Shown here: positions 24,365 through 29,045 of the stretch, piece after piece
Numbering within the stretch: position 1 is the first letter of the stretch
Layout of the letters: the number at the start of each line of letters is the position of its first letter
IMG/VR virus record: IMGVR_UViG_3300045988_147372
Span: 1 to 42,832 of that record
DNA from: a virus
Length of the DNA: 42,832 nt
Direction: 5' to 3' (one strand)
Notes under the pieces: model-generated
Told to the model about the DNA's origin: nothing
Database searches by the model: none
The model's input: the letters and a program-made list of their open reading frames with translations, nothing else
Made by a program: the position numbers and the translations under genes

Positions 24365-24393
24365 CTACTCGCCTCCCGAAATATAATAGCCGT

Positions 24394-24467
24394 GAGCCAC
24401 ATGCAATCATGCTGCTCTTTTCATTTTTTACTCCTCTGGCTCTCGGCCTTACCCACCGAGAGCTTTT
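24394..24467 (+). ncRNA. Array A unit 1: predicted ~74-nt RNA
   Basis: TTGCAT (24359..24364) -17 nt- TATAAT (24382..24387). Terminator GCTCTCGG/CCGAGAGC + TTTT at 24439..24467. Confidence 0.45.
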
Positions 24468-24505
24468 CTATTGCCTGAAAAGTTCGAGTGAGATAAAATG
24501 AATCT

Positions 24506-24585
24506 GTTCCAAACTATATACTCATTTTCATTCCTCGGTACTACCCTAATCTTCTAGCTCTCGGCCCCCAACCGAGGGCTTTTTT
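24506..24585 (+). ncRNA. Array A unit 2: predicted ~80-nt RNA
   Basis: TTGCCT (24471..24476) -17 nt- TAAAAT (24494..24499). Terminator stem 24557..24579 plus a T6 run. Confidence 0.45.
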
Positions 24586-24620
24586 AGTATCTTCTATAAG
24601 GAGTGTGCTAATATATATGC

Positions 24621-24726
24621 GTGAGTAGTGGCTTTTCTCCTCCAAGTCAATCGCTGCTACTCACTAGTGGATTTCATTTTTTCCATTTCTCCGGCCCTCA
24701 GACACTTCGACCTCTGAGGGCTTTTT
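24621..24726 (+). ncRNA. Array A unit 3: predicted ~106-nt RNA
   Basis: TGcTAATAT at 24606..24614. 5' hairpin GUGAGUAG/CUACUCAC (24621..24664). Terminator GCCCTCAGA/TCTGAGGGC + T5 at 24694..24726. Confidence 0.4.
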
Positions 24727-24763
24727 GAATCCGATTTATTGCTATATGTGTTATACTCTTTTT

Positions 24764-24832
24764 TGGCACTGTCGTTTCACCTCAGCAAACGCCGGTAGCT
24801 AGGCCCTCAGTTAATCGCTCAGAGGGCTTTTT
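24764..24832 (+). ncRNA. Array A unit 4: predicted ~69-nt RNA
   Basis: TGtTATACT at 24749..24757, preceded by a TTGCTATA box at 24739..24746. Terminator GCCCTC/GAGGGC + T5 at 24803..24832. Confidence 0.4.
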
Positions 24833-24884
24833 CTGTGTAATCGGTTTTTAGATCTTCTTTTAATTATAGTGGTATAATTATTTT

Positions 24885-24964
24885 TGCAGGAATAATACTT
24901 CTGCACCTCTTAAAAATCTTCTTCTTTCTTTTCGGGCACCTTCGGTTTATGCCGGAGGTTTTTT
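24885..24964 (+). ncRNA. Array A unit 5: predicted ~80-nt RNA
   Basis: TGgTATAAT at 24870..24878. 5' hairpin UGCAG/CUGCA, then a pyrimidine-rich tract. Terminator 24938..24964 (8 bp + T6). Confidence 0.4.
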
Positions 24965-24971
24965 GTTGCAC

Positions 24972-25003
24972 AAAAATAGCACCTCACCGTTTGGCGGAGT
25001 GCT
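24972..25003 (-). terminator. Second (tandem) intrinsic terminator after the ASCH operon
   Basis: Imperfect hairpin AGCACUCCG...CGGUGAGGUGCU followed by AUUUUUG on the minus strand. Confidence 0.4.
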
Positions 25004-25010
25004 TGGGTAA

Positions 25011-25033
25011 ATAAAAAGACGCCGTGGTGTCTT
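25011..25033 (-). terminator. Intrinsic terminator 10 nt after the ASCH gene stop
   Basis: Minus strand: AAGACAC-cacg-GCGUCUU (7 bp, one wobble), then UUUAUUU. Confidence 0.55.
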
Positions 25034-25042
25034 AGCTAAATG

Positions 25043-25414
25043 TTAAACATAAACAAATGATTGTGGAGCTACTTTTACGTTCGGGAAAAGCTCTTGGATT
25101 TTTTGAGGAAGTTTATATTCTTGGTAATTTTCAATTTCGATTGCATACGCCGTTTCTCGTCCTTCGAAATATGCCTCAAAGAAATCATGTGTGATTCCAG
25201 AAAATTCTGAAGTCTTATTCCAAAGCTTATCTGGAGCGTCTTGGAGAACCCTTTTAACTTTAAATTCCCCAACAACCCTTCCGCAAGGCTCAGTAGAATA
25301 AACAACAACTCGGTCCACCTGTCTTTTAAAAATCCCCTTTCTATATTCGAAAAGTTTTCTGCCGCTACGGATTTCGTCCACAAATTCAGGCTTTATTGAC
25401 AACAAAATTCTCAT
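25043..25414 (-). CDS. ASCH (PUA-like beta-barrel) domain protein
   Basis: MRILLSIKPEFVDEIRSGRKLFEYRK... fits the N-terminal ASCH pattern (SIKP..a..I..G.K..E.R). 123 aa. Local GC is low. Confidence 0.6.
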   Translation of the reverse strand: MRILLSIKPEFVDEIRSGRKLFEYRKGIFKRQVDRVVVYSTEPCGRVVGEFKVKRVLQDAPDKLWNKTSEFSGITHDFFEAYFEGRETAYAIEIENYQEYKLPQKIQELFPNVKVAPQSFVYV

Positions 25415-26459
25415 TTATTTTCCCCGCCCTTAAAATTGCCTTAAATTCTTCATCTGCCATTTTGAAAAAGCCAAAATATTGTGTTCTTCTGTTAGGTCTC
25501 AATATTCCCTCAGTTAAAAGGTCGTGGCGCGTTATTCTCTTATTAAGAGGAAGATTATATAAAAATCGAATCACTTGGCTGTATTGTTTAGACTTCCAAA
25601 ATGCATGAAGCTCATCTGTTGAAAAAATAGACCCTCGCCCGGCAAAACTCATAAAATCTTCTTCGTCAGTAAAACTATTAATATTTCTAACTTCATCAAT
25701 CACACAAACAGAAGTTACCACAGAACTATATTCGGCCGACTTTCCATAGTCCGCAGTTCTATAGATGACCATTTTATCACCATGATTTAACGCAGGAGTT
25801 CCGCTCATACTTGTTAGATAGGACTTTACAACACTATTGGCGGGAGAAATGTCTTCACGAACAAAGCTTTTTTCCGTGTTTAACTTAGAATCGGGAAACA
25901 TTCTTGTATGAAACCGGGGTTTAATACTAAGTAAGAACTTCCCACCATTCAGATCAAACTTAGGAAACTGAGCATATATGTCTCCACGATCATCCTTGTT
26001 GCGTACGAGAACATCTTCCCGTCCAATTCTATTTTGTTTGGTGCCGTATTTTTGAAACCCAAATTTTCTAAAAAGTTCTGGCAAGCCTTTCACGTCAGAA
26101 AACATCGTGACATAAACATCGTCAAAGCCTTCTTCTACGAAAGTCCGAAGAATAATTGCCATGAAACGATTACTGGTTGTGGCCAAATGGGCATTTATTT
26201 TAAAAGTGCCGACCTTTAGGTGCTTGCCATCTTTCAAGTTCGGATCAACATCTTTAACGATCCCTTCCTCCGACTTCAAATAAAGAAAGGCGTTTATCTT
26301 GTTTTCTTCAGAAAGAGAAACATAGGCCATCTCCCCACTAGCCGCTTTTTGTCGGAACCAATCATCAAACCCTTCATAATTCTCCCGTAAAGAGTTAAAA
26401 AAAACGTCAGTAAGGTTTATTTCCTCAAACTTTTCCAGTGCCAGATAATCATCATTCAT
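25386..26459 (-). CDS. Two-domain protein: N-terminal GNAT-like fold + C-terminal ASCH/EVE-like domain
   Basis: Start moved to MNDDYLALEKF behind RBS GAGGTGA. The N-terminal half ends ...VYVTMFSDVKGLPELFRKFGFQKYG (GNAT C-terminal pattern). The C-terminal half begins KFLLSIKPRFHTRMF, paralogous to the start of the downstream ASCH protein. Confidence 0.45.
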   Translation of the reverse strand: MNDDYLALEKFEEINLTDVFFNSLRENYEGFDDWFRQKAASGEMAYVSLSEENKINAFLYLKSEEGIVKDVDPNLKDGKHLKVGTFKINAHLATTSNRFMAIILRTFVEEGFDDVYVTMFSDVKGLPELFRKFGFQKYGTKQNRIGREDVLVRNKDDRGDIYAQFPKFDLNGGKFLLSIKPRFHTRMFPDSKLNTEKSFVREDISPANSVVKSYLTSMSGTPALNHGDKMVIYRTADYGKSAEYSSVVTSVCVIDEVRNINSFTDEEDFMSFAGRGSIFSTDELHAFWKSKQYSQVIRFLYNLPLNKRITRHDLLTEGILRPNRRTQYFGFFKMADEEFKAILRAGKINENFVVNKA

Positions 26460-26992
26460 TTTTATCACCTCACAAAAATAGTACACCAGCATGAACTGGA
26501 ATACTATATTGAGGTGATATCTGATGTTCTTGGAGTGATAGGCTCCAAAGCGAACGGGCGGAGTTGCACCGCCCCGTTTCAGCATTGCTTAACCGGTATC
26601 AATGCCTTCCCTTGTCTGCTGATCGCATAATGCGCACGGCCTCGATCGTTAACCGTACGGCTTCTGGCTGTTCACCCTTGTCAACCAGCGACCAACTTTG
26701 AGTGGCTGGCAGGACTTTCACCCGCTGTATCTTCCATCAGCCACGCTCGCTCTCCCAGTGTCAGATGGGGTCATCGCAAGCTGTGTCCGGTCGCTAAACT
26801 GGACAATGTGGCATGCGGGAATCAAACCCACCTGACTATCTCAGCCAGTCCATTTGCCACGCCTTGCCACAGCTTTATCATCACTGAGGCTCGGAGGAAA
26901 AATGCGGTGTCTCAGGTTTCTCATCTTTGGCACAATACCATAATACTGCCTATAAACGATCTTTTGGGGGCTTTTTCGGGGCCCAAAAGGGG
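26460..26992 (-). ncRNA. ~530-nt ORF-free, GC-rich structured leader / candidate large ncRNA
   Basis: No credible ORF in any frame. Hand counts on 60-nt lines give 52-60% GC at 26581..26760, against 32-35% in the adjacent CDS. Contains a strong hairpin AACGGGGCGG-ugcaacu-CCGCCCGUU, a tRNA-like element (26807..26860), a GGGGCTTTTTCGGGG direct repeat and the RBS-sequestering helix. Confidence 0.45.
26463..26519 (-). promoter_or_regulatory. 10-bp helix sequestering the RBS of the GNAT-like gene
   Basis: TATCACCTCA (26463..26472) and TGAGGTGATA (26510..26519) are perfect reverse complements 37 nt apart. In the minus-strand RNA the 3' arm contains the GAGGUGA SD, 3 nt before the AUG. Confidence 0.55.
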
Positions 26993-27430
26993 CTAATTCG
27001 GGGCTTTTTCGGGGTTTTTGAAAACCAATAGATTTTCTCCTTGATAGGCTTCTGCAAATTCTAACAGCGCTCGGTTCTTAAGCTTCTTGATTGATTCTCT
27101 TGAGTAACCTTGCATGCGATAAGCAATCTGGTCATAAGTCAGTACCTCTTTGTTGCAGTATGAATAAAACAGCGTCCAGAAGCTTGTGGTTGTTAGCGCC
27201 ATCAATGCATTCTCAATCAGTTCAACGCTAATACGAGCACTGACGACTTTTGCCACTTTACCATCTACTGAATTATTTACTGAATGTGTCTTTGGCATAC
27301 CATCTATAACGGGTGATTTAATGTCAGACAAATAGACACCGCCGATACGTGATAGCGTTCGGAAGTCTTTCAATATCTCTCTTGCCTTTGTACGTGTCGA
27401 ATTTTCGTCTATTTCTGGAATTAACGTCAT
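26993..27430 (-). CDS. ArpU-family phage late transcriptional regulator
   Basis: Start moved to MTLIPEIDENSTRTKAREILKDF behind RBS GGGGTGG. The C-terminal sigma-r4-like YDQIAYRMQGYSRESIKKLKNRALLEFAEAY is typical of ArpU. Confidence 0.7.
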   Translation of the reverse strand: MTLIPEIDENSTRTKAREILKDFRTLSRIGGVYLSDIKSPVIDGMPKTHSVNNSVDGKVAKVVSARISVELIENALMALTTTSFWTLFYSYCNKEVLTYDQIAYRMQGYSRESIKKLKNRALLEFAEAYQGENLLVFKNPEKAPN

Positions 27431-27512
27431 CGGTAGGCCACCCCTTATGGTATAATGAATTTGCCTAAAACTCATCGGGAAGGCGTGCCGTAATGGTGCG
27501 CTTTTTTGATGC

Positions 27513-28047: not shown

Positions 28048-28081
28048 TTTTAGTTCCTTCTTTCTGTGATATACTTACCTT

Positions 28082-28135
28082 TCAAATAATTCGGTTTGAT
28101 AGACTGAGTCGTCCTGTTAATCCGGGGCGACTTTT
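28082..28135 (+). ncRNA. Array B unit 0: predicted ~54-nt RNA
   Basis: TGaTATACT at 28067..28075. Terminator stem 28107..28132 plus T4. Confidence 0.35.
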
Positions 28136-28149
28136 GCTATACTTTGTTT

Positions 28150-28242
28150 TGGAGGCGCTTTCTTATGCGTATTAACCTTATAAGTTGGGGAATAAATCTG
28201 CTTCAAGCACCTCCCGCGCGTTGCTTATGTAACGCGCTTTTT
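28150..28242 (+). ncRNA. Array B unit 1: predicted ~93-nt RNA
   Basis: TGcTATACT at 28135..28143. 5' GGAGGCGC (28151..28158) pairs with GCACCUCC (28207..28214). Terminator GCGCGTT/AACGCGC + T5 at 28216..28242. Confidence 0.45.
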
Positions 28243-28255
28243 GCTATACTGCTTG

Positions 28256-28346
28256 CGGAGACCAACTCCTTTTATAAAGATTCCATTTGACATCTTATGT
28301 GTGTTTCACTGGCCTCCGGCATGCCACTAATGTGGCGTGCTTTTTT
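28256..28346 (+). ncRNA. Array B unit 2: predicted ~91-nt RNA
   Basis: TGcTATACT at 28242..28250. 5' CGGAGaCC (28256..28263) pairs with GGcCUCCG (28311..28318). Terminator 9 bp + T6 at 28319..28346. Confidence 0.45.
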
Positions 28347-28394
28347 GATGCTTTTAAATGTACTTTCGATATTTGTGTTTGCTATACTGATTAA

Positions 28395-28483
28395 GGAGGC
28401 AGCCTCTATTGTGGCGAAATTCATTACTTACATCTCTTAGCTAAATCTGCCTCCAGCGCGTCCTTCATCAGACGCGCTTTTTT
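28395..28483 (+). ncRNA. Array B unit 3: predicted ~89-nt RNA
   Basis: TGcTATACT at 28380..28388. 5' GGAGGCAG (28395..28402) pairs perfectly with CUGCCUCC (28447..28454). Terminator AGCGCGTC/GACGCGCT + T5 at 28455..28483. Confidence 0.5.
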
Positions 28484-28498
28484 GTGCTACACTTTCCT

Positions 28499-28580
28499 TG
28501 GAGTGTCCCTATAAAAAATCTGATGCTATTGGGGCAATTTGTCTACACTCCAGAGCGTGCTTTCGTCCAGCACGCTTTTT
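28499..28580 (+). ncRNA. Array B unit 4: predicted ~82-nt RNA
   Basis: TGcTACACT at 28485..28493. 5' UGGAGUGU (28499..28506) pairs perfectly with ACACUCCA (28545..28552). Terminator AGCGTGC/GCACGCT + T run at 28554..28580. Confidence 0.5.
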
Positions 28581-28582
28581 GT

Positions 28583-28732
28583 TTACCCAAATGCGGCCTT
28601 CCAGAGCACCCGTACAACCCAGCACCCCACAAGAATGAAAACTGCTGTCGTGAATGCACAGCCTACGAAACAACCACCTAACAATCCGGTTTCCACAAGC
28701 CTTTCTGACTTAGATTGACGATCATCAGTCAT
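28583..28732 (-). CDS. 49-aa single-TM membrane peptide
   Basis: MTDDRQSKSERLVETGLLGGCFVGCAFTTAVFILVGCWVVRVLWKAAFG behind a strong RBS GGAGGG (5-nt spacer). It overlaps the end of the methyltransferase fragment by 8 nt. Below the ORF-track cutoff. Confidence 0.5.
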   Translation of the reverse strand: MTDDRQSKSERLVETGLLGGCFVGCAFTTAVFILVGCWVVRVLWKAAFG

Positions 28733-29045
28733 GGCTTCCCTCCATCATTTCCGGCCAGAGGTCGCGGTCATCTTTCGTGCCTTTTCGCTTCCCGGCAATA
28801 CTGAAAGGTTGGCAAGGGAAGCCTCCGGAAACAATGTCAATTGAGTCAGGGCTGATTCCTGCATTTGTGAGTTCTTCTCGATCAAGTTTTGTCACGTCCT
28901 TAAAAAGTGGCACATCTGGCCAGTGCTTCTGTAAAATCATGCGCGGATATTCTGCGTACTCACACAAACCGGCCACTTCAATTCCAGCCATTTGTTCAGC
29001 CAATGCGATGCCACCAATTCCTGCAAATAACTCTAGCGATCTCAT
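28725..29045 (-). pseudogene. Truncated DNA (cytosine-5)-methyltransferase (N-terminal 106 aa only)
   Basis: Motif I LFAGIGG and motif IV GFPCQPFS are present. The ORF stops after DLWPEM, before motifs VI (ENV), VIII, IX and X that all active C5-MTases carry. Confidence 0.7.

Follow-up and report, generated by a model that had tools for sequence, protein, structure and literature searches.

The stretch of viral DNA analyzed here, which we call the window, is 42,832 nt long. On its minus strand, an ArpU-like gene (27475..26993) is followed by a gap that extends to the ATG of the next gene (26459), and no ORF between the two exceeds 62 aa. Conserved ORFs are absent from 26992..26460 on this strand, and the gap ORFs have no Pfam match in any frame. 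The sole PHROG match in the gap, phrog_21820, falls on an unconserved ORF that overlies a tRNA-like element. GC content is 0.51-0.565 across 26500..26899, compared with 0.34-0.41 in adjoining coding sequence, and the 538-nt minus-strand RNA folds to -190.6 kcal/mol, as against -166 +/- 6 for shuffles (z = -4.0). A first reading of the DNA, made from its letters only (the sequence-only reading), had described an ORF-free gap with a GC contrast typical of structured RNA; both descriptions are borne out, with GC reaching 56% and a fold z of -4. The same reading had proposed a single large structured RNA, which does not hold: modules swap independently among about 140 related loci, and the gap is therefore a mosaic rather than one large RNA. 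This mosaic is non-coding and structured. Its parts and borders are collected in Table 1.

Table 1. Features of the gap and its borders, listed in minus-strand order.
Feature	Positions	Strand	Basis
ArpU-family late transcriptional activator gene	26993..27475	-	phrog_248 'transcriptional activator', E = 8.7e-28
Candidate ArpU operator, (A/G)CCCC x5	26967..27015	-	read from sequence
-10-like box TATTATGGTATTGT, putative late promoter	26932..26945	-	conserved TAT(T/G)AT(G/T)GTATTGT, all related loci
Conserved, unstructured 5' leader segment (module A)	26872..26931	-	conservation, fold
tRNA-like element without D-arm	26807..26871	-	three-way junction is the minimum-energy (MFE) fold; 138 loci
Hairpin GUCCAG-N8-CCGGAC	26785..26804	-	predicted fold
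Hairpin with k-turn-like internal loop, GCUUGC-GAU-GA-CCCC...GGG-A-GA-GCGAGC	26745..26781	-	predicted fold
Optional non-coding cassette (B + C5')	26545..26744	-	one block, 94-95% identity, only in L133-L137 and L151
Minihelix tRNA mimic, GUGGCUG-AUGGAAGAUACA-GCGGG-UGAAAGU-CCUGC-CAGCCAC	26702..26744	-	acceptor-plus-T-arm scan; MFE fold
T-arm-like hairpin GGGCGG-UGCAACU-CCGCCC, then GUUCGCUU	26548..26574	-	fold, RNAalifold, scan
Anti-SD arm UAUCACCUCA	26510..26519	-	perfect 10-bp complement of 26472..26463
Intrinsic-terminator-shaped hairpin, 13 bp, 4-nt loop, then UUUUUG	26473..26507	-	terminator scan
SD UGAGGUGAUA (26472..26463) and ATG (26459..26457) of first late ORF	26457..26472	-	sequence
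First late ORF, 357 aa, acetyltransferase-like N-terminus	25386..26459	-	phrog_6345, phrog_13728

The activator gene has as its closest cluster an 'ArpU family phage packaging/lysis transcriptional regulator'. Straddling its stop codon are five repeats that start at 27015, 27004, 26993, 26982, and 26971, with an exact 11-nt period. Duplicated GGGGCTTTTTCGGGG repeats had been reported here; they are real, but they belong to a five-fold GCCCC array (27015..26967) and are not merely a duplication. The sequence-only reading had passed over the GGGGC repeats as an ArpU operator, the promoter downstream, and the terminator-shaped core of the SD helix. Across 119 related loci, changes in the repeat motif go with changes in the ArpU C-terminus, which defines at least nine motif/C-terminus groups, and the repeats hold constant positions 34, 45, and 56 nt before a GTATTGTGCC anchor. 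ArpU-family activators depend on direct repeats, to which they bind, just past their own gene and upstream of the late promoter; the activator C-terminus sets the repeat specificity, and late expression in other phages requires no factor beyond the activator (PMC3753634). Repeat positions in our loci agree with the experimentally defined Ltr/ArpU sites (PMC3753634), and both the layout and the tracking of the activator C-terminus by the repeat sequence are those of an ArpU/Ltr-dependent late promoter. ArpU probably binds at the GCCCC repeats, of which the proximal one lies about 27 nt upstream of the -10; transcription is likely to start near 26935-26930. A promoter-scan tool did not call this late promoter because it has no -35. 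The same layout recurs in a Melissococcus prophage, where repeats precede a similar -10-like box, TATTATTGTAGTAT.

Downstream of the operator, 45 phage records match 26945..26745 at 92-97% identity, and similarity is undetectable on either side. This leader (module A) is about 190 nt long, is common to essentially all Lacticaseibacillus casei-group phages, and is present in six Lacticaseibacillus species; an exact 29-mer from it was found in more than 119 IMG/VR contigs. Its 5' segment (26872..26931) contains the pyrimidine tract UUUUUCCUCC and GUGAUGAUAAAGC, and is less structured than its shuffles (MFE -4 kcal/mol, z = +1.8); on inspection, a weak stem within it, AAGGYG/CRCCUU, covaries in a divergent type of the leader. 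Toward the 3' end, the hairpin at 26785..26804 is part of a 62-nt block left intact by cassette insertions at 26806. The next hairpin (26745..26781) fits the k-turn consensus by eye, with GAUGA and GA invariant and position 3b.3n varying between A and C across loci, and it may form a k-turn. A pseudoknot between CUCAG/CAUGG (26887..26883) and the central loop of the tRNA-like element (CUGAG/CCGUG) is not supported: both allele pairs are perfectly complementary, but the haplotypes are barely associated (~52:14:22:16). The leader also contains ACCUGAGAC, apparently the reverse complement of the start of a casei-group type II-A CRISPR repeat; at 9 nt, we take this to be a coincidence.

At the heart of the leader is the tRNA-like element. 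A tRNA-like structure without a D-arm had been placed at 26807..26860, and it is found exactly there (26860..26807): on its own, the RNA has the three-way junction as its lowest-energy fold (-23 kcal/mol, z = -3.2). The acceptor, GUGGCA(A)/(A)UGCCAC, consists of 6 bp and a conserved A.A, and has two alternative 5' strands, 26870..26864 or 26860..26854; these are the two occurrences of GUGGCAA that the sequence-only reading had correctly seen as a duplicated TTGCCAC. The remaining parts are a linker (AUGGA), a central arm, a T-arm (GUGGG-UUUGAUU-CCCGC), and a discriminator A at 26807. A central arm does exist as earlier described, but in a different register: CUGGC/GUCAG (26848..26844 / 26836..26832) is better than GACUG/UAGUC, and we prefer it because natural variants fit it (G.U to A-U; G-C in L087). 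In 127 of 138 loci, the T-arm reads GCGGG-UUCGAUU-CCCGC, with a canonical UUCGAUU loop and G53-C61 pair. The element therefore carries an acceptor on a 5-bp T-stem, a UUCRANN T-loop, and G53-C61, as a tRNA does. Only 5-6 nt (AAUGGA / AUGAGGA) separate the acceptor from the central arm, so there is no D-arm; a GG-containing linker takes its place in this tRNA mimic. Every allele of the central loop is without U at position 33, so that neither the D-arm nor the U33 anticodon loop of a tRNA is present. This loop is the most polymorphic part of an element that is 95% conserved, with the alleles UGAGAUA, CGUGAUA, UGCGAUA, and GGUGAUA. The suggested search with ARAGORN was negative, returning 0 tRNA genes in the window, and the best match to the Rfam tRNA clan was a sub-threshold one to tRNA-Sec (21.1 bits vs a cutoff of 47). 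A first scan of viral sequences with the window's own T-arm 18-mer recovered 4 unrelated loci only.

The fold is shared by a divergent type 2 (L137, L143, L146, L152, and L147), which forms the same three helices through compensatory changes. Acceptor pairs 2, 3, 4, and 6 and T-stem pairs 2 and 3 are made of different bases in types 1 and 2 but remain paired, and RNAalifold run on type 2 alone arrives independently at the three-way junction, with 2 compensatory pairs. The two types could not be aligned with MAFFT, and pairs were counted with a custom parser; covariation support comes from only two or three independent divergent sequences. Within type 1, T-stem pair 2 is C.A in 6 of 37 variants. 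Mismatches are tolerated in several type-1 helices, and conservation may therefore act in part on the DNA, for example at recombination joints.

Behind the leader is a slot whose content differs between phages. In the window, it is filled by the cassette at 26744..26545, which is about 200 nt long, is absent from most related phages, and is closed in RNAalifold by pairing of GAGCGAGC (26752..26745) with GUUCGCUU (26555..26548). A viral scan with cassette B yielded 5 near-identical copies, and a metagenome scan one chance match inside a coding region; with so few homologues, the internal fold has almost no covariation support. The C5' core, which forms the cassette's last ~75 nt, ends several otherwise different cassettes and occurs in 17 sequence variants. 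Its hairpin shows one G-C to A-U compensatory change, A.C being the commonest state at that pair. This is the strong hairpin with a ugcaacu loop noted previously; it is present at 26574..26556, but the 10/9-nt version requires one bulged G. A scan for an acceptor plus a T-arm found 3 sites in the 486-nt leader, where 0.013 were expected and 0/300 shuffles reached 3; the whole 42.8-kb minus strand has 6 such sites, half of them in the leader. The mean over 84 distinct leaders is 1.76 sites, compared with 0.013 in shuffles. In sister phages, this slot contains genuine tRNA genes (Leu, Ile, Val, Met); among 129 loci, 22 have ARAGORN calls, which are genuine tRNAs or ones with odd loops and all lie on the same strand. 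One sister tRNA-Leu(UAA) begins directly after the leader, and a tRNA-Ile(UAU) stands directly before the terminator. Neither the slot's real tRNAs nor the mimics have an encoded CCA. The shortest leaders (204-280 nt) comprise module A and the terminator hairpin, and nothing else.

The gap closes with a stable hairpin (26473..26507; -14.1 kcal/mol, z = -6) directly before a U-run, the arrangement of an intrinsic terminator; the run is UUUUUG in the window and U5-U7 in related loci. Over 22 distinct sequences, 98.3% of the hairpin's cells are paired, with 3 compensatory pairs. It is nested within a second helix: the 10-bp pairing said to hide the downstream gene's SD is perfect (26519..26510 / 26472..26463) and conserved. 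The SD, UGAGGUGAUA, ends 3 nt upstream of the ATG, the anti-SD arm resembles the 3' end of 16S rRNA, and the 71-nt hairpin that includes the anti-SD/SD helix reaches -30.3 kcal/mol (z = -7.05). The anti-SD arm is kept in 57 loci, a few of them without the SD arm. Downstream of the nested hairpins in 57 loci are at least 12 different, unrelated first genes, and the SD-hiding module is therefore not specific to the GNAT-like/ASCH pair. The first late ORF is a variable accessory (moron-like) gene; other loci have unrelated genes in its place. The module may terminate transcription efficiently and probably occludes the SD. If termination before the late genes is efficient, a read-through or antitermination factor would be needed; we identified none.

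Established RNA families were searched with Rfam in the window at the gathering score, in 26300..27200 at E <= 10, and in 12 related loci. Comparison with ROOL and GOLLD, as the sequence-only reading had advised, gave no match at the gathering score or at E <= 10. T-box and tRNA models likewise had no match in the window at the gathering score (RF00005 included), nor did T-box at E <= 10. We therefore rejected membership in the ROOL, GOLLD, T-box, tRNA, and tmRNA families; the related loci gave only the sister phages' true tRNAs. A match to the group II intron model D1D4-4 (20.9 bits vs a gathering score of 49) is spurious: it is caused by the 43-nt minihelix 26744..26702, in which a 19/19 match, CAGCGGGUGAAAGUCCUGC, spans the linker, T-like arm, and loop. 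No further group II intron domain was found, domain V included, and no reverse-transcriptase ORF. The leader RNA is an undescribed family outside Rfam and is not a giant ornate RNA.

Several other readings of the gap can be weighed against these data. A single ornate RNA of the ROOL/GOLLD kind that fills the gap would suit the context, a prophage with tRNA genes nearby in sister phages (PMC5737381), and the good fold of the whole stretch; yet even the permissive search and the 12 related loci lack a match, the first 60 nt are unstructured, and the parts occur independently, down to leaders with module A and the terminator hairpin alone, all of which makes this reading highly improbable. The earlier alternative was a ligand- or tRNA-sensing cis-regulator, riboswitch- or T-box-like, that controls GNAT-like/ASCH translation through the anti-SD helix. 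That helix is real, very stable, and conserved, with a terminator inside; it could pair differently with a second UAUCAC copy (26540..26535) or a CCUCC tract, and the Melissococcus prophage has an analogous anti-SD/SD pair. However, the hairpin adjoins many different upstream sequences, and follows module A by ~17 nt in the shortest leaders, so that no conserved aptamer is coupled to it; given also the unrelated genes downstream and the lack of an Rfam riboswitch or T-box match, we consider such a regulator very unlikely. The chance that the gap encodes a small protein, be it the 49-aa ORF (phrog_21820) or a frameshifted larger gene, seems negligible to us. The translation of 26831..26721 does match phrog_21820 (E = 1e-19), and ORFs are annotated at the corresponding place in A2, J-1, LJ, and others, the 49-aa one in J-1, PL-1, and A2. 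Against this, a common 1-nt difference in linker length (AUG in 45 loci, UGAG in 79) disrupts the 49-aa ORF, the commonest loop allele introduces an in-frame UGA, cassettes inserted at 26806 break the ORF as well, and in the divergent type the leader is 8 nt longer and the ORF has early stops. The ORF also has no SD, and a Pfam match is missing in every frame. Because of the frame-breaking polymorphism, we rejected the protein-coding readings, small ORFs and phrog_21820 alike.

What the tRNA mimics do is a separate matter. They may be decaying phage tRNA genes without a present RNA function, module A being conserved as a homologous-recombination joint of mosaic genomes and for promoter-proximal DNA signals. 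A CL1 relic, negative in ARAGORN and with an acceptor (GCAACUG) resembling the one in A2 tRNA-Leu, looks like a decay intermediate; ARAGORN tRNAs whose anticodon loops are aberrant, T-arms of chimeric make-up in P7.1 and L122 that suggest recombination inside them, frequent A.C and C.A mismatches, and the almost free reassortment of alleles at three patches point the same way. Even so, we find decay unlikely: types 1 and 2 have diverged at nearly every stem position and have kept the three helices, the GGA of the linker, the A.A 7:66, and the T-loop, which is not expected of neutral debris, and more than 130 loci preserve the element between flanks that have been exchanged. Released mimics could instead be effectors, acting as decoys of or competitors for any host factor that recognizes the elbow or the acceptor end of a tRNA. 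Proposed targets are tRNA-targeting abortive-infection toxins, nucleotidyltransferase toxins, T-box leaders, and CCA-adding or tRNA-modifying enzymes, and the differing cassettes among phages would then be an exchangeable arsenal. Such a role agrees with the retention of acceptor and T-arm helices where D-arm and anticodon loop are lost or remodelled, with the polymorphism of the central loop, with cassette content that varies strongly between otherwise similar phages, as in anti-defence loci, and with a position behind the strongest late promoter. It is nevertheless rather improbable in our view: aminoacylation identity elements and an encoded CCA are absent, and phages of several host species share one and the same universal type-1 element, which speaks against a strain-specific arms race there. 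The computed features fit a pure processing role equally well. A bolder conjecture, which we regard as doubtful, is that the late leader of casei-group phages is an exchangeable array of small-RNA cassettes, each with a tRNA acceptor/T-arm 'handle' at its end, from which host tRNA-processing enzymes free elbow mimics that act in trans. If this were true, the mimics might, for example, titrate tRNA-directed defence toxins or falsely signal uncharged tRNA, and the universal D-arm-less mimic would found a new class of effector RNAs in phages.

We favor, with modest confidence, the reading of the gap as the control region of the late operon of a Lacticaseibacillus prophage, together with the operon's untranslated head: an operator and promoter, a leader, a slot for tRNAs or mimics, and a terminator with a hidden SD. 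It draws on the observed anatomy, conservation, and modularity, on the way the repeat motif follows ArpU type, and on the structural covariation. ArpU would bind the five GCCCC repeats, which run across the 3' end of the ArpU gene itself, and activate a -35-less promoter with its -10 at 26945..26932. The transcript would start with the ~190-nt leader, whose core is the D-arm-less tRNA mimic (acceptor, T-arm, and short central arm). The slot behind it holds real tRNA genes or further acceptor-plus-T-arm mimics, depending on the phage; in the window, it holds the 200-nt cassette with two mimics and no functional tRNA. The smallest substrate shape that suits RNase P, RNase Z, and the CCA-adding enzyme is an acceptor stacked on a canonical T-arm. 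The leader would behave as a tRNA operon precursor, with RNase P and RNase Z recognizing its acceptor/T-arm stacks, and the terminator and hidden SD would act as a gate to the late genes, restricting how much transcription enters the first accessory gene and how far that gene is translated. A 5'-monophosphate end made by RNase Z could destabilize, rather than stabilize, the downstream mRNA in a Firmicute.

Known systems share parts of this arrangement. The mascRNA at the MALAT1 3' end, the tRNA-like domains of tmRNA, and D-arm-less mitochondrial tRNAs keep the acceptor and T-arm with other arms reduced. The mimics described here are co-linear with the real tRNAs of sister phages, as in phage tRNA gene clusters; unlike a tRNA, they have no D-arm, U33, or plausible anticodon loop, and unlike tmRNA, they have no alanine identity pair. 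In Ltr/ArpU/RinA late promoters (Quiles-Puchalt et al. 2013, PMC3753634), short direct repeats likewise lie distal to the 3' end of the activator gene, which they overlap here, and repeat sequence tracks the activator C-terminus in the same way (PMC3753634). The present locus differs in having five 5-nt core repeats with a strict 11-nt period, and in that the promoter is followed by a non-coding leader of 200-3300 nt, accessory genes, and then terS, rather than by terS directly. In the lambdoid pR'-tR' unit (lambda 6S RNA, StxS), the late promoter drives a short non-coding transcript to an intrinsic terminator, and Stx phages have tRNA genes and an accessory gene between the late promoter and the lysis/structural genes (PMC7547250). 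The succession of promoter, non-coding transcript, terminator, and tRNA or accessory genes before the late genes is thus common to both; lambdoid control is by Q antitermination of a constitutive promoter, whereas an activator (ArpU) is expected here, and only here do tRNA mimics make up the leader and does the terminator overlap an SD-hiding helix. ROOL and GOLLD (PMC5737381; PMC12286853) are also non-coding, GC-rich relative to the phage, found in Lactobacillales prophages, and adjoin tRNA genes; the leader is much smaller, modular, and interchangeable, with no single conserved multi-junction fold and no covariance-model match.

Several phage records wrongly list small 'hypothetical proteins' in this gap, which can now be broken down into a candidate ArpU operator, a late promoter, a conserved leader RNA (a family that Rfam lacks and that has more than 130 members), and a terminator/SD-occlusion module that is portable. 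For phages of Lacticaseibacillus, a genus of probiotic and dairy bacteria, these parts are concrete targets for the study and engineering of late-gene control, and at least nine ArpU/operator specificity pairs are predicted. Mimics of the tRNA acceptor and T-arm are kept behind a phage late promoter, in a hotspot that swaps tRNAs and tRNA-like cassettes. If the mimics are more than processing signals, they bear on why phages carry tRNAs at all.

The window is a Lacticaseibacillus casei-group prophage in which all relevant genes lie on the minus strand (see table). The gap between the ArpU-family activator gene and the next gene matches phages A2, iLp84, PLE3, J-1, PL-1, CL1, Lc-Nu, phiAT3, BH1, and others. 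An earlier sequence-only reading described this gap as GC-rich, ORF-free, and structured, and that description holds: GC content reaches 0.565 at 26600..26799 versus 0.34-0.41 in the flanking genes, the longest ORF has at most 62 aa, and the predicted fold of the 538-nt RNA is 4 standard deviations more stable than those of shuffles. The suggested kinship with ROOL or GOLLD RNAs is not borne out, as an Rfam search, permissive settings included, returned no match to either. At the gathering score, Rfam has no match in the window, and ARAGORN calls no tRNA there. The only notable permissive matches are tRNA-Sec (21.1 bits versus a cutoff of 47), on a tRNA-like element, and group-II-D1D4-4 (20.9 bits versus 49, at 26727..26607); the latter is spurious and arises from the loop region of a 43-nt minihelix.

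Features of the late-gene region, in minus-strand order
Feature	Position	Strand	Remarks
ArpU-family activator gene, 160 aa	27475..26993	minus	phrog_248; NCBI cluster name 'ArpU family phage packaging/lysis transcriptional regulator'
Gap, 533 nt	between ArpU gene and 357-aa protein gene	minus	
Conserved TAT(T/G)AT(G/T)GTATTGT	26945..26932	minus	after the repeats; -10-like box
Hairpin	26804..26785	minus	after tRNA-like element
Second hairpin	26781..26745	minus	internal loop fits kink-turn consensus by inspection
Minihelix, 43 nt	26744..26702	minus	from acceptor-plus-T-arm scan
Hairpin	26574..26556	minus	from acceptor-plus-T-arm scan; 3' tail GUUCGCUU
13-bp hairpin, then UUUUUG	26507..26478	minus	
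Gene for 357-aa protein, acetyltransferase-like N-terminus	26459..25386	minus	phrog_6345 / phrog_13728
ASCH protein gene	directly after 357-aa protein gene	minus	
Second ORF-poor stretch, then GcrA/metallophosphatase-like gene	after ASCH gene	minus	
terS, terL, portal, other late genes	after GcrA/metallophosphatase-like gene	minus	

Several neighboring features deserve mention. The ASCH-domain protein start overlaps the acetyltransferase-like gene (25043..26459 for the pair); the two form variable accessory cargo at the first late-gene position, and RNA-related members exist in both domain types. The second ORF-poor stretch (24365..25042, minus; MFE z-score -4.0) carries a pair of terminator-like hairpins at the 5' end and, beyond them, four hairpins of ~35-45 nt; AAAAAGCCCUC or GAAAAGCUCUC precedes each of the four. 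Partial conservation (85-89%) is seen in 19 casei-group phages, where the stretch has no annotation, and Rfam gives no match for it. Within 28048..29045 (minus), the ORF at 28725..29045 resembles a C5 DNA methyltransferase over its N-terminal part only (FAGIGG ... PCQPFS motifs). As ~680 nt of ORF-poor sequence come next, the gene may be disrupted.

By local BLAST against the loci of other phages, the gap divides into modules. Module A, the conserved leader (26945..26745), is 92-97% identical in 45/45 phage records, to which the ArpU gene upstream and the sequence downstream of the module show no detectable nucleotide similarity. An exact 29-mer from it occurs in more than 119 IMG/VR contigs among the matches listed; module A is also found in L. 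chiayiensis and L. zeae, and in divergent form in L. suibinensis, L. parakribbianus, L. hegangensis, and L. kribbianus. The following cassette (26744..26545) is rare: as one block it was found in just five viral contigs and a single genome. Several cassettes of otherwise different sequence end in its last ~75 nt. The terminal 65 nt (26523..26455) are shared by 57 loci. Across 84 distinct loci, leader length ranges from 204 to 3306 nt (median 411 nt), the shortest leaders consisting of module A and the terminal hairpin only.

Upstream of module A, (A/G)CCCC starts at 27015, 27004, 26993, 26982, and 26971 on the minus strand, an array with an exact 11-nt period that spans the ArpU stop codon. 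At this position, each related locus carries a phased repeat of its own sequence (for example TGCAACA, TGAGACC, TGAGGAC, TTGCGGA, TGGGAA, CGGACA, or GCGAAC), starting 34, 45, and 56 nt upstream of a conserved GTATTGTGCC, and the motif changes together with the ArpU C-terminal sequence. Direct repeats are bound and needed by ArpU, RinA, and LtrC, as shown experimentally; they lie immediately distal to the activator's own gene, upstream of the late promoter, and the activator's C-terminus sets specificity (Quiles-Puchalt et al., PMC3753634). The GGGGCTTTTTCGGGG repeats, which the sequence-only reading counted among its RNA elements, are present; given the phasing, the co-change with ArpU, these published family sites, and the same plan in Melissococcus, they are most likely the ArpU operator, with binding predicted. 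The proximal repeat occupies the place expected of a -35, and transcription most likely begins near 26935.

The first ~60 nt of the leader (26931..26872) are conserved and predicted to be unstructured (z = +1.8). Next comes the 54-nt tRNA-like element (26860..26807), whose minimum-energy structure is the three-way junction originally described (-23 kcal/mol, z = -3.2). Across 138 loci, the element keeps a 6-bp acceptor with an invariant A.A, a 5-6-nt linker with a GGA end, a 5-bp arm CUGRC/GYCAG, a canonical T-arm (GCGGG-UUCGAUU-CCCGC), and a discriminator A; G.U, A-U, and G-C variants back the register of the 5-bp arm. Type 1, the common form, tolerates some mismatches, such as C.A at T-stem pair 2 in 6/37 variants. 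Type 2 comes from four other species, and L. zeae has an intermediate form. Its sequence is different at almost all stem positions (acceptor CCCCG/CGGGG or UCCCG/CGGGA; arm AGCC/GGCU; T-stem GCCGG/CCGGC or GUUGG/CCAGC), and its architecture is the same, AUGGA linker and A.A included. RNAalifold on type 2 alone returns the three-way junction with two compensatory pairs. Since such different stems preserve one architecture, comparative analysis indicates that the tRNA-like fold is conserved, across few independent lineages. The element is not a true tRNA: it lacks a D-arm and U33 and matches no model. Separately, sites 26887..26883 and 26843..26839 each have two multi-nucleotide alleles (CUCAG/CAUGG and CUGAG/CCGUG) that are mutually complementary in both states and reassort almost freely among the 138 loci.

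In sister phages, a slot behind or inside module A contains real tRNA genes on the same strand: in A2, tRNA-Leu(UAA) begins 1-2 nt past it; in iLp84 and PLE3, tRNA-Ile(UAU) directly precedes the terminal hairpin; elsewhere there are tRNAs for Val and Met, and several tRNAs whose anticodon loops are odd. ARAGORN calls tRNAs in 22/129 loci; in CL1, a relic that it does not call still shows a good T-arm and an acceptor of 7 bp. Non-coding inserts of 155-200 nt sit immediately behind the tRNA-like element (26806-equivalent) in loci L003, L009, L133, L138, L147, and L153; they form at least five families, each with its own terminal T-arm, acceptor 3' strand, and AUUG, and none matches Rfam. We scanned for acceptor-plus-T-arm sites, defined as a 5-bp stem with a G-C closing pair and a U..A 7-nt loop, followed directly by a 7-nt strand pairing upstream. 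The window's 486-nt leader has three sites versus 0.013 expected (0/300 dinucleotide shuffles had three), with only six on the whole 42.8-kb minus strand; 84 distinct leaders average 1.76 versus 0.013 in shuffles. The window's three sites are the tRNA-like element, the 43-nt minihelix, and the hairpin 26574..26556. Pairing of this hairpin's tail, GUUCGCUU, with GAGCGAGC at the module A end is possible and would close the 200-nt cassette. With no more than five copies, all near-identical, covariation gives essentially no support for the cassette's internal fold.

The terminal hairpin is flanked by an anti-SD arm, UAUCACCUCA, resembling the 16S rRNA 3' end, and the SD arm UGAGGUGAUA. These form the perfect 10-bp helix noticed at the outset (26519..26510 / 26472..26463), its 3' arm being the SD of the next gene; hairpin and arms fold at -30.3 kcal/mol (z = -7). 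Over 22 distinct sequences, pairing amounts to 98.3% in the inner hairpin, which shows three compensatory pairs, and to 82% in the outer helix, where the exceptions are loci without the SD arm; in one locus, the top of the inner stem has been exchanged for another sequence that is again complementary.

Specific tests contradict three other readings: a single ornate RNA, a riboswitch, and a small protein. The idea of a riboswitch-like regulator of the GNAT-like/ASCH pair fails because the terminal module precedes at least 12 unrelated first genes; by its distribution, the module is instead a putative general gate at the non-coding unit's end. A protein reading has database precedent: phrog_21820 ('unknown function', 49 aa; 26721..26831, minus) translates the tRNA-like element and the following hairpins, and ORFs are annotated at the same site in A2 (ORF51), J-1 (J1_56), and LJ (LJ_27). 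Three kinds of variation interrupt this ORF: a common 1-nt indel, an in-frame UGA carried by the commonest loop allele, and cassette insertions. It is broken in most loci, so these database proteins look like annotation artefacts. As for the mimics, they may act in trans as decoys, or may be neutral tRNA debris retained as recombination joints.

Operator/promoter logic and tRNAs near phage late promoters are already known. No description was found, in Rfam or the searchable literature, of a universally conserved late leader with a D-arm-less tRNA-mimic core, of the cassette hotspot, or of a portable terminator/anti-SD module. In a Melissococcus plutonius prophage (L154:3400-3720) with a 42%-identical ArpU, three TAGGG copies at 11-nt spacing precede TTATTATTGTAGTAT, the same kind of -10 box, then a promoter-proximal terminator and an anti-SD (CUAUCACUUCC) / SD (UGAGGUGAUA) pair; no tRNA mimic was found in this locus. 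The operator/promoter/SD-occlusion plan thus appears to be present in a second genus, with one locus examined.

The acceptor/T-arm stack is the minimal shape for RNase P, RNase Z, and the CCA-adding enzyme. The primary transcript at this locus would open with a tRNA-operon-like precursor; encoded CCA is absent from both the slot's real tRNAs and the mimics, and RNase Z would therefore process all of them. In function, the nearest counterpart is the lambdoid pR'-tR' leader, whose short RNA ends at a terminator; Stx phages have tRNA genes and an accessory gene ahead of the late genes (PMC7547250). In the casei-group phages, the terminator would hold down expression of the variable accessory gene that comes first, and in read-through transcripts the hidden SD would do so as well.
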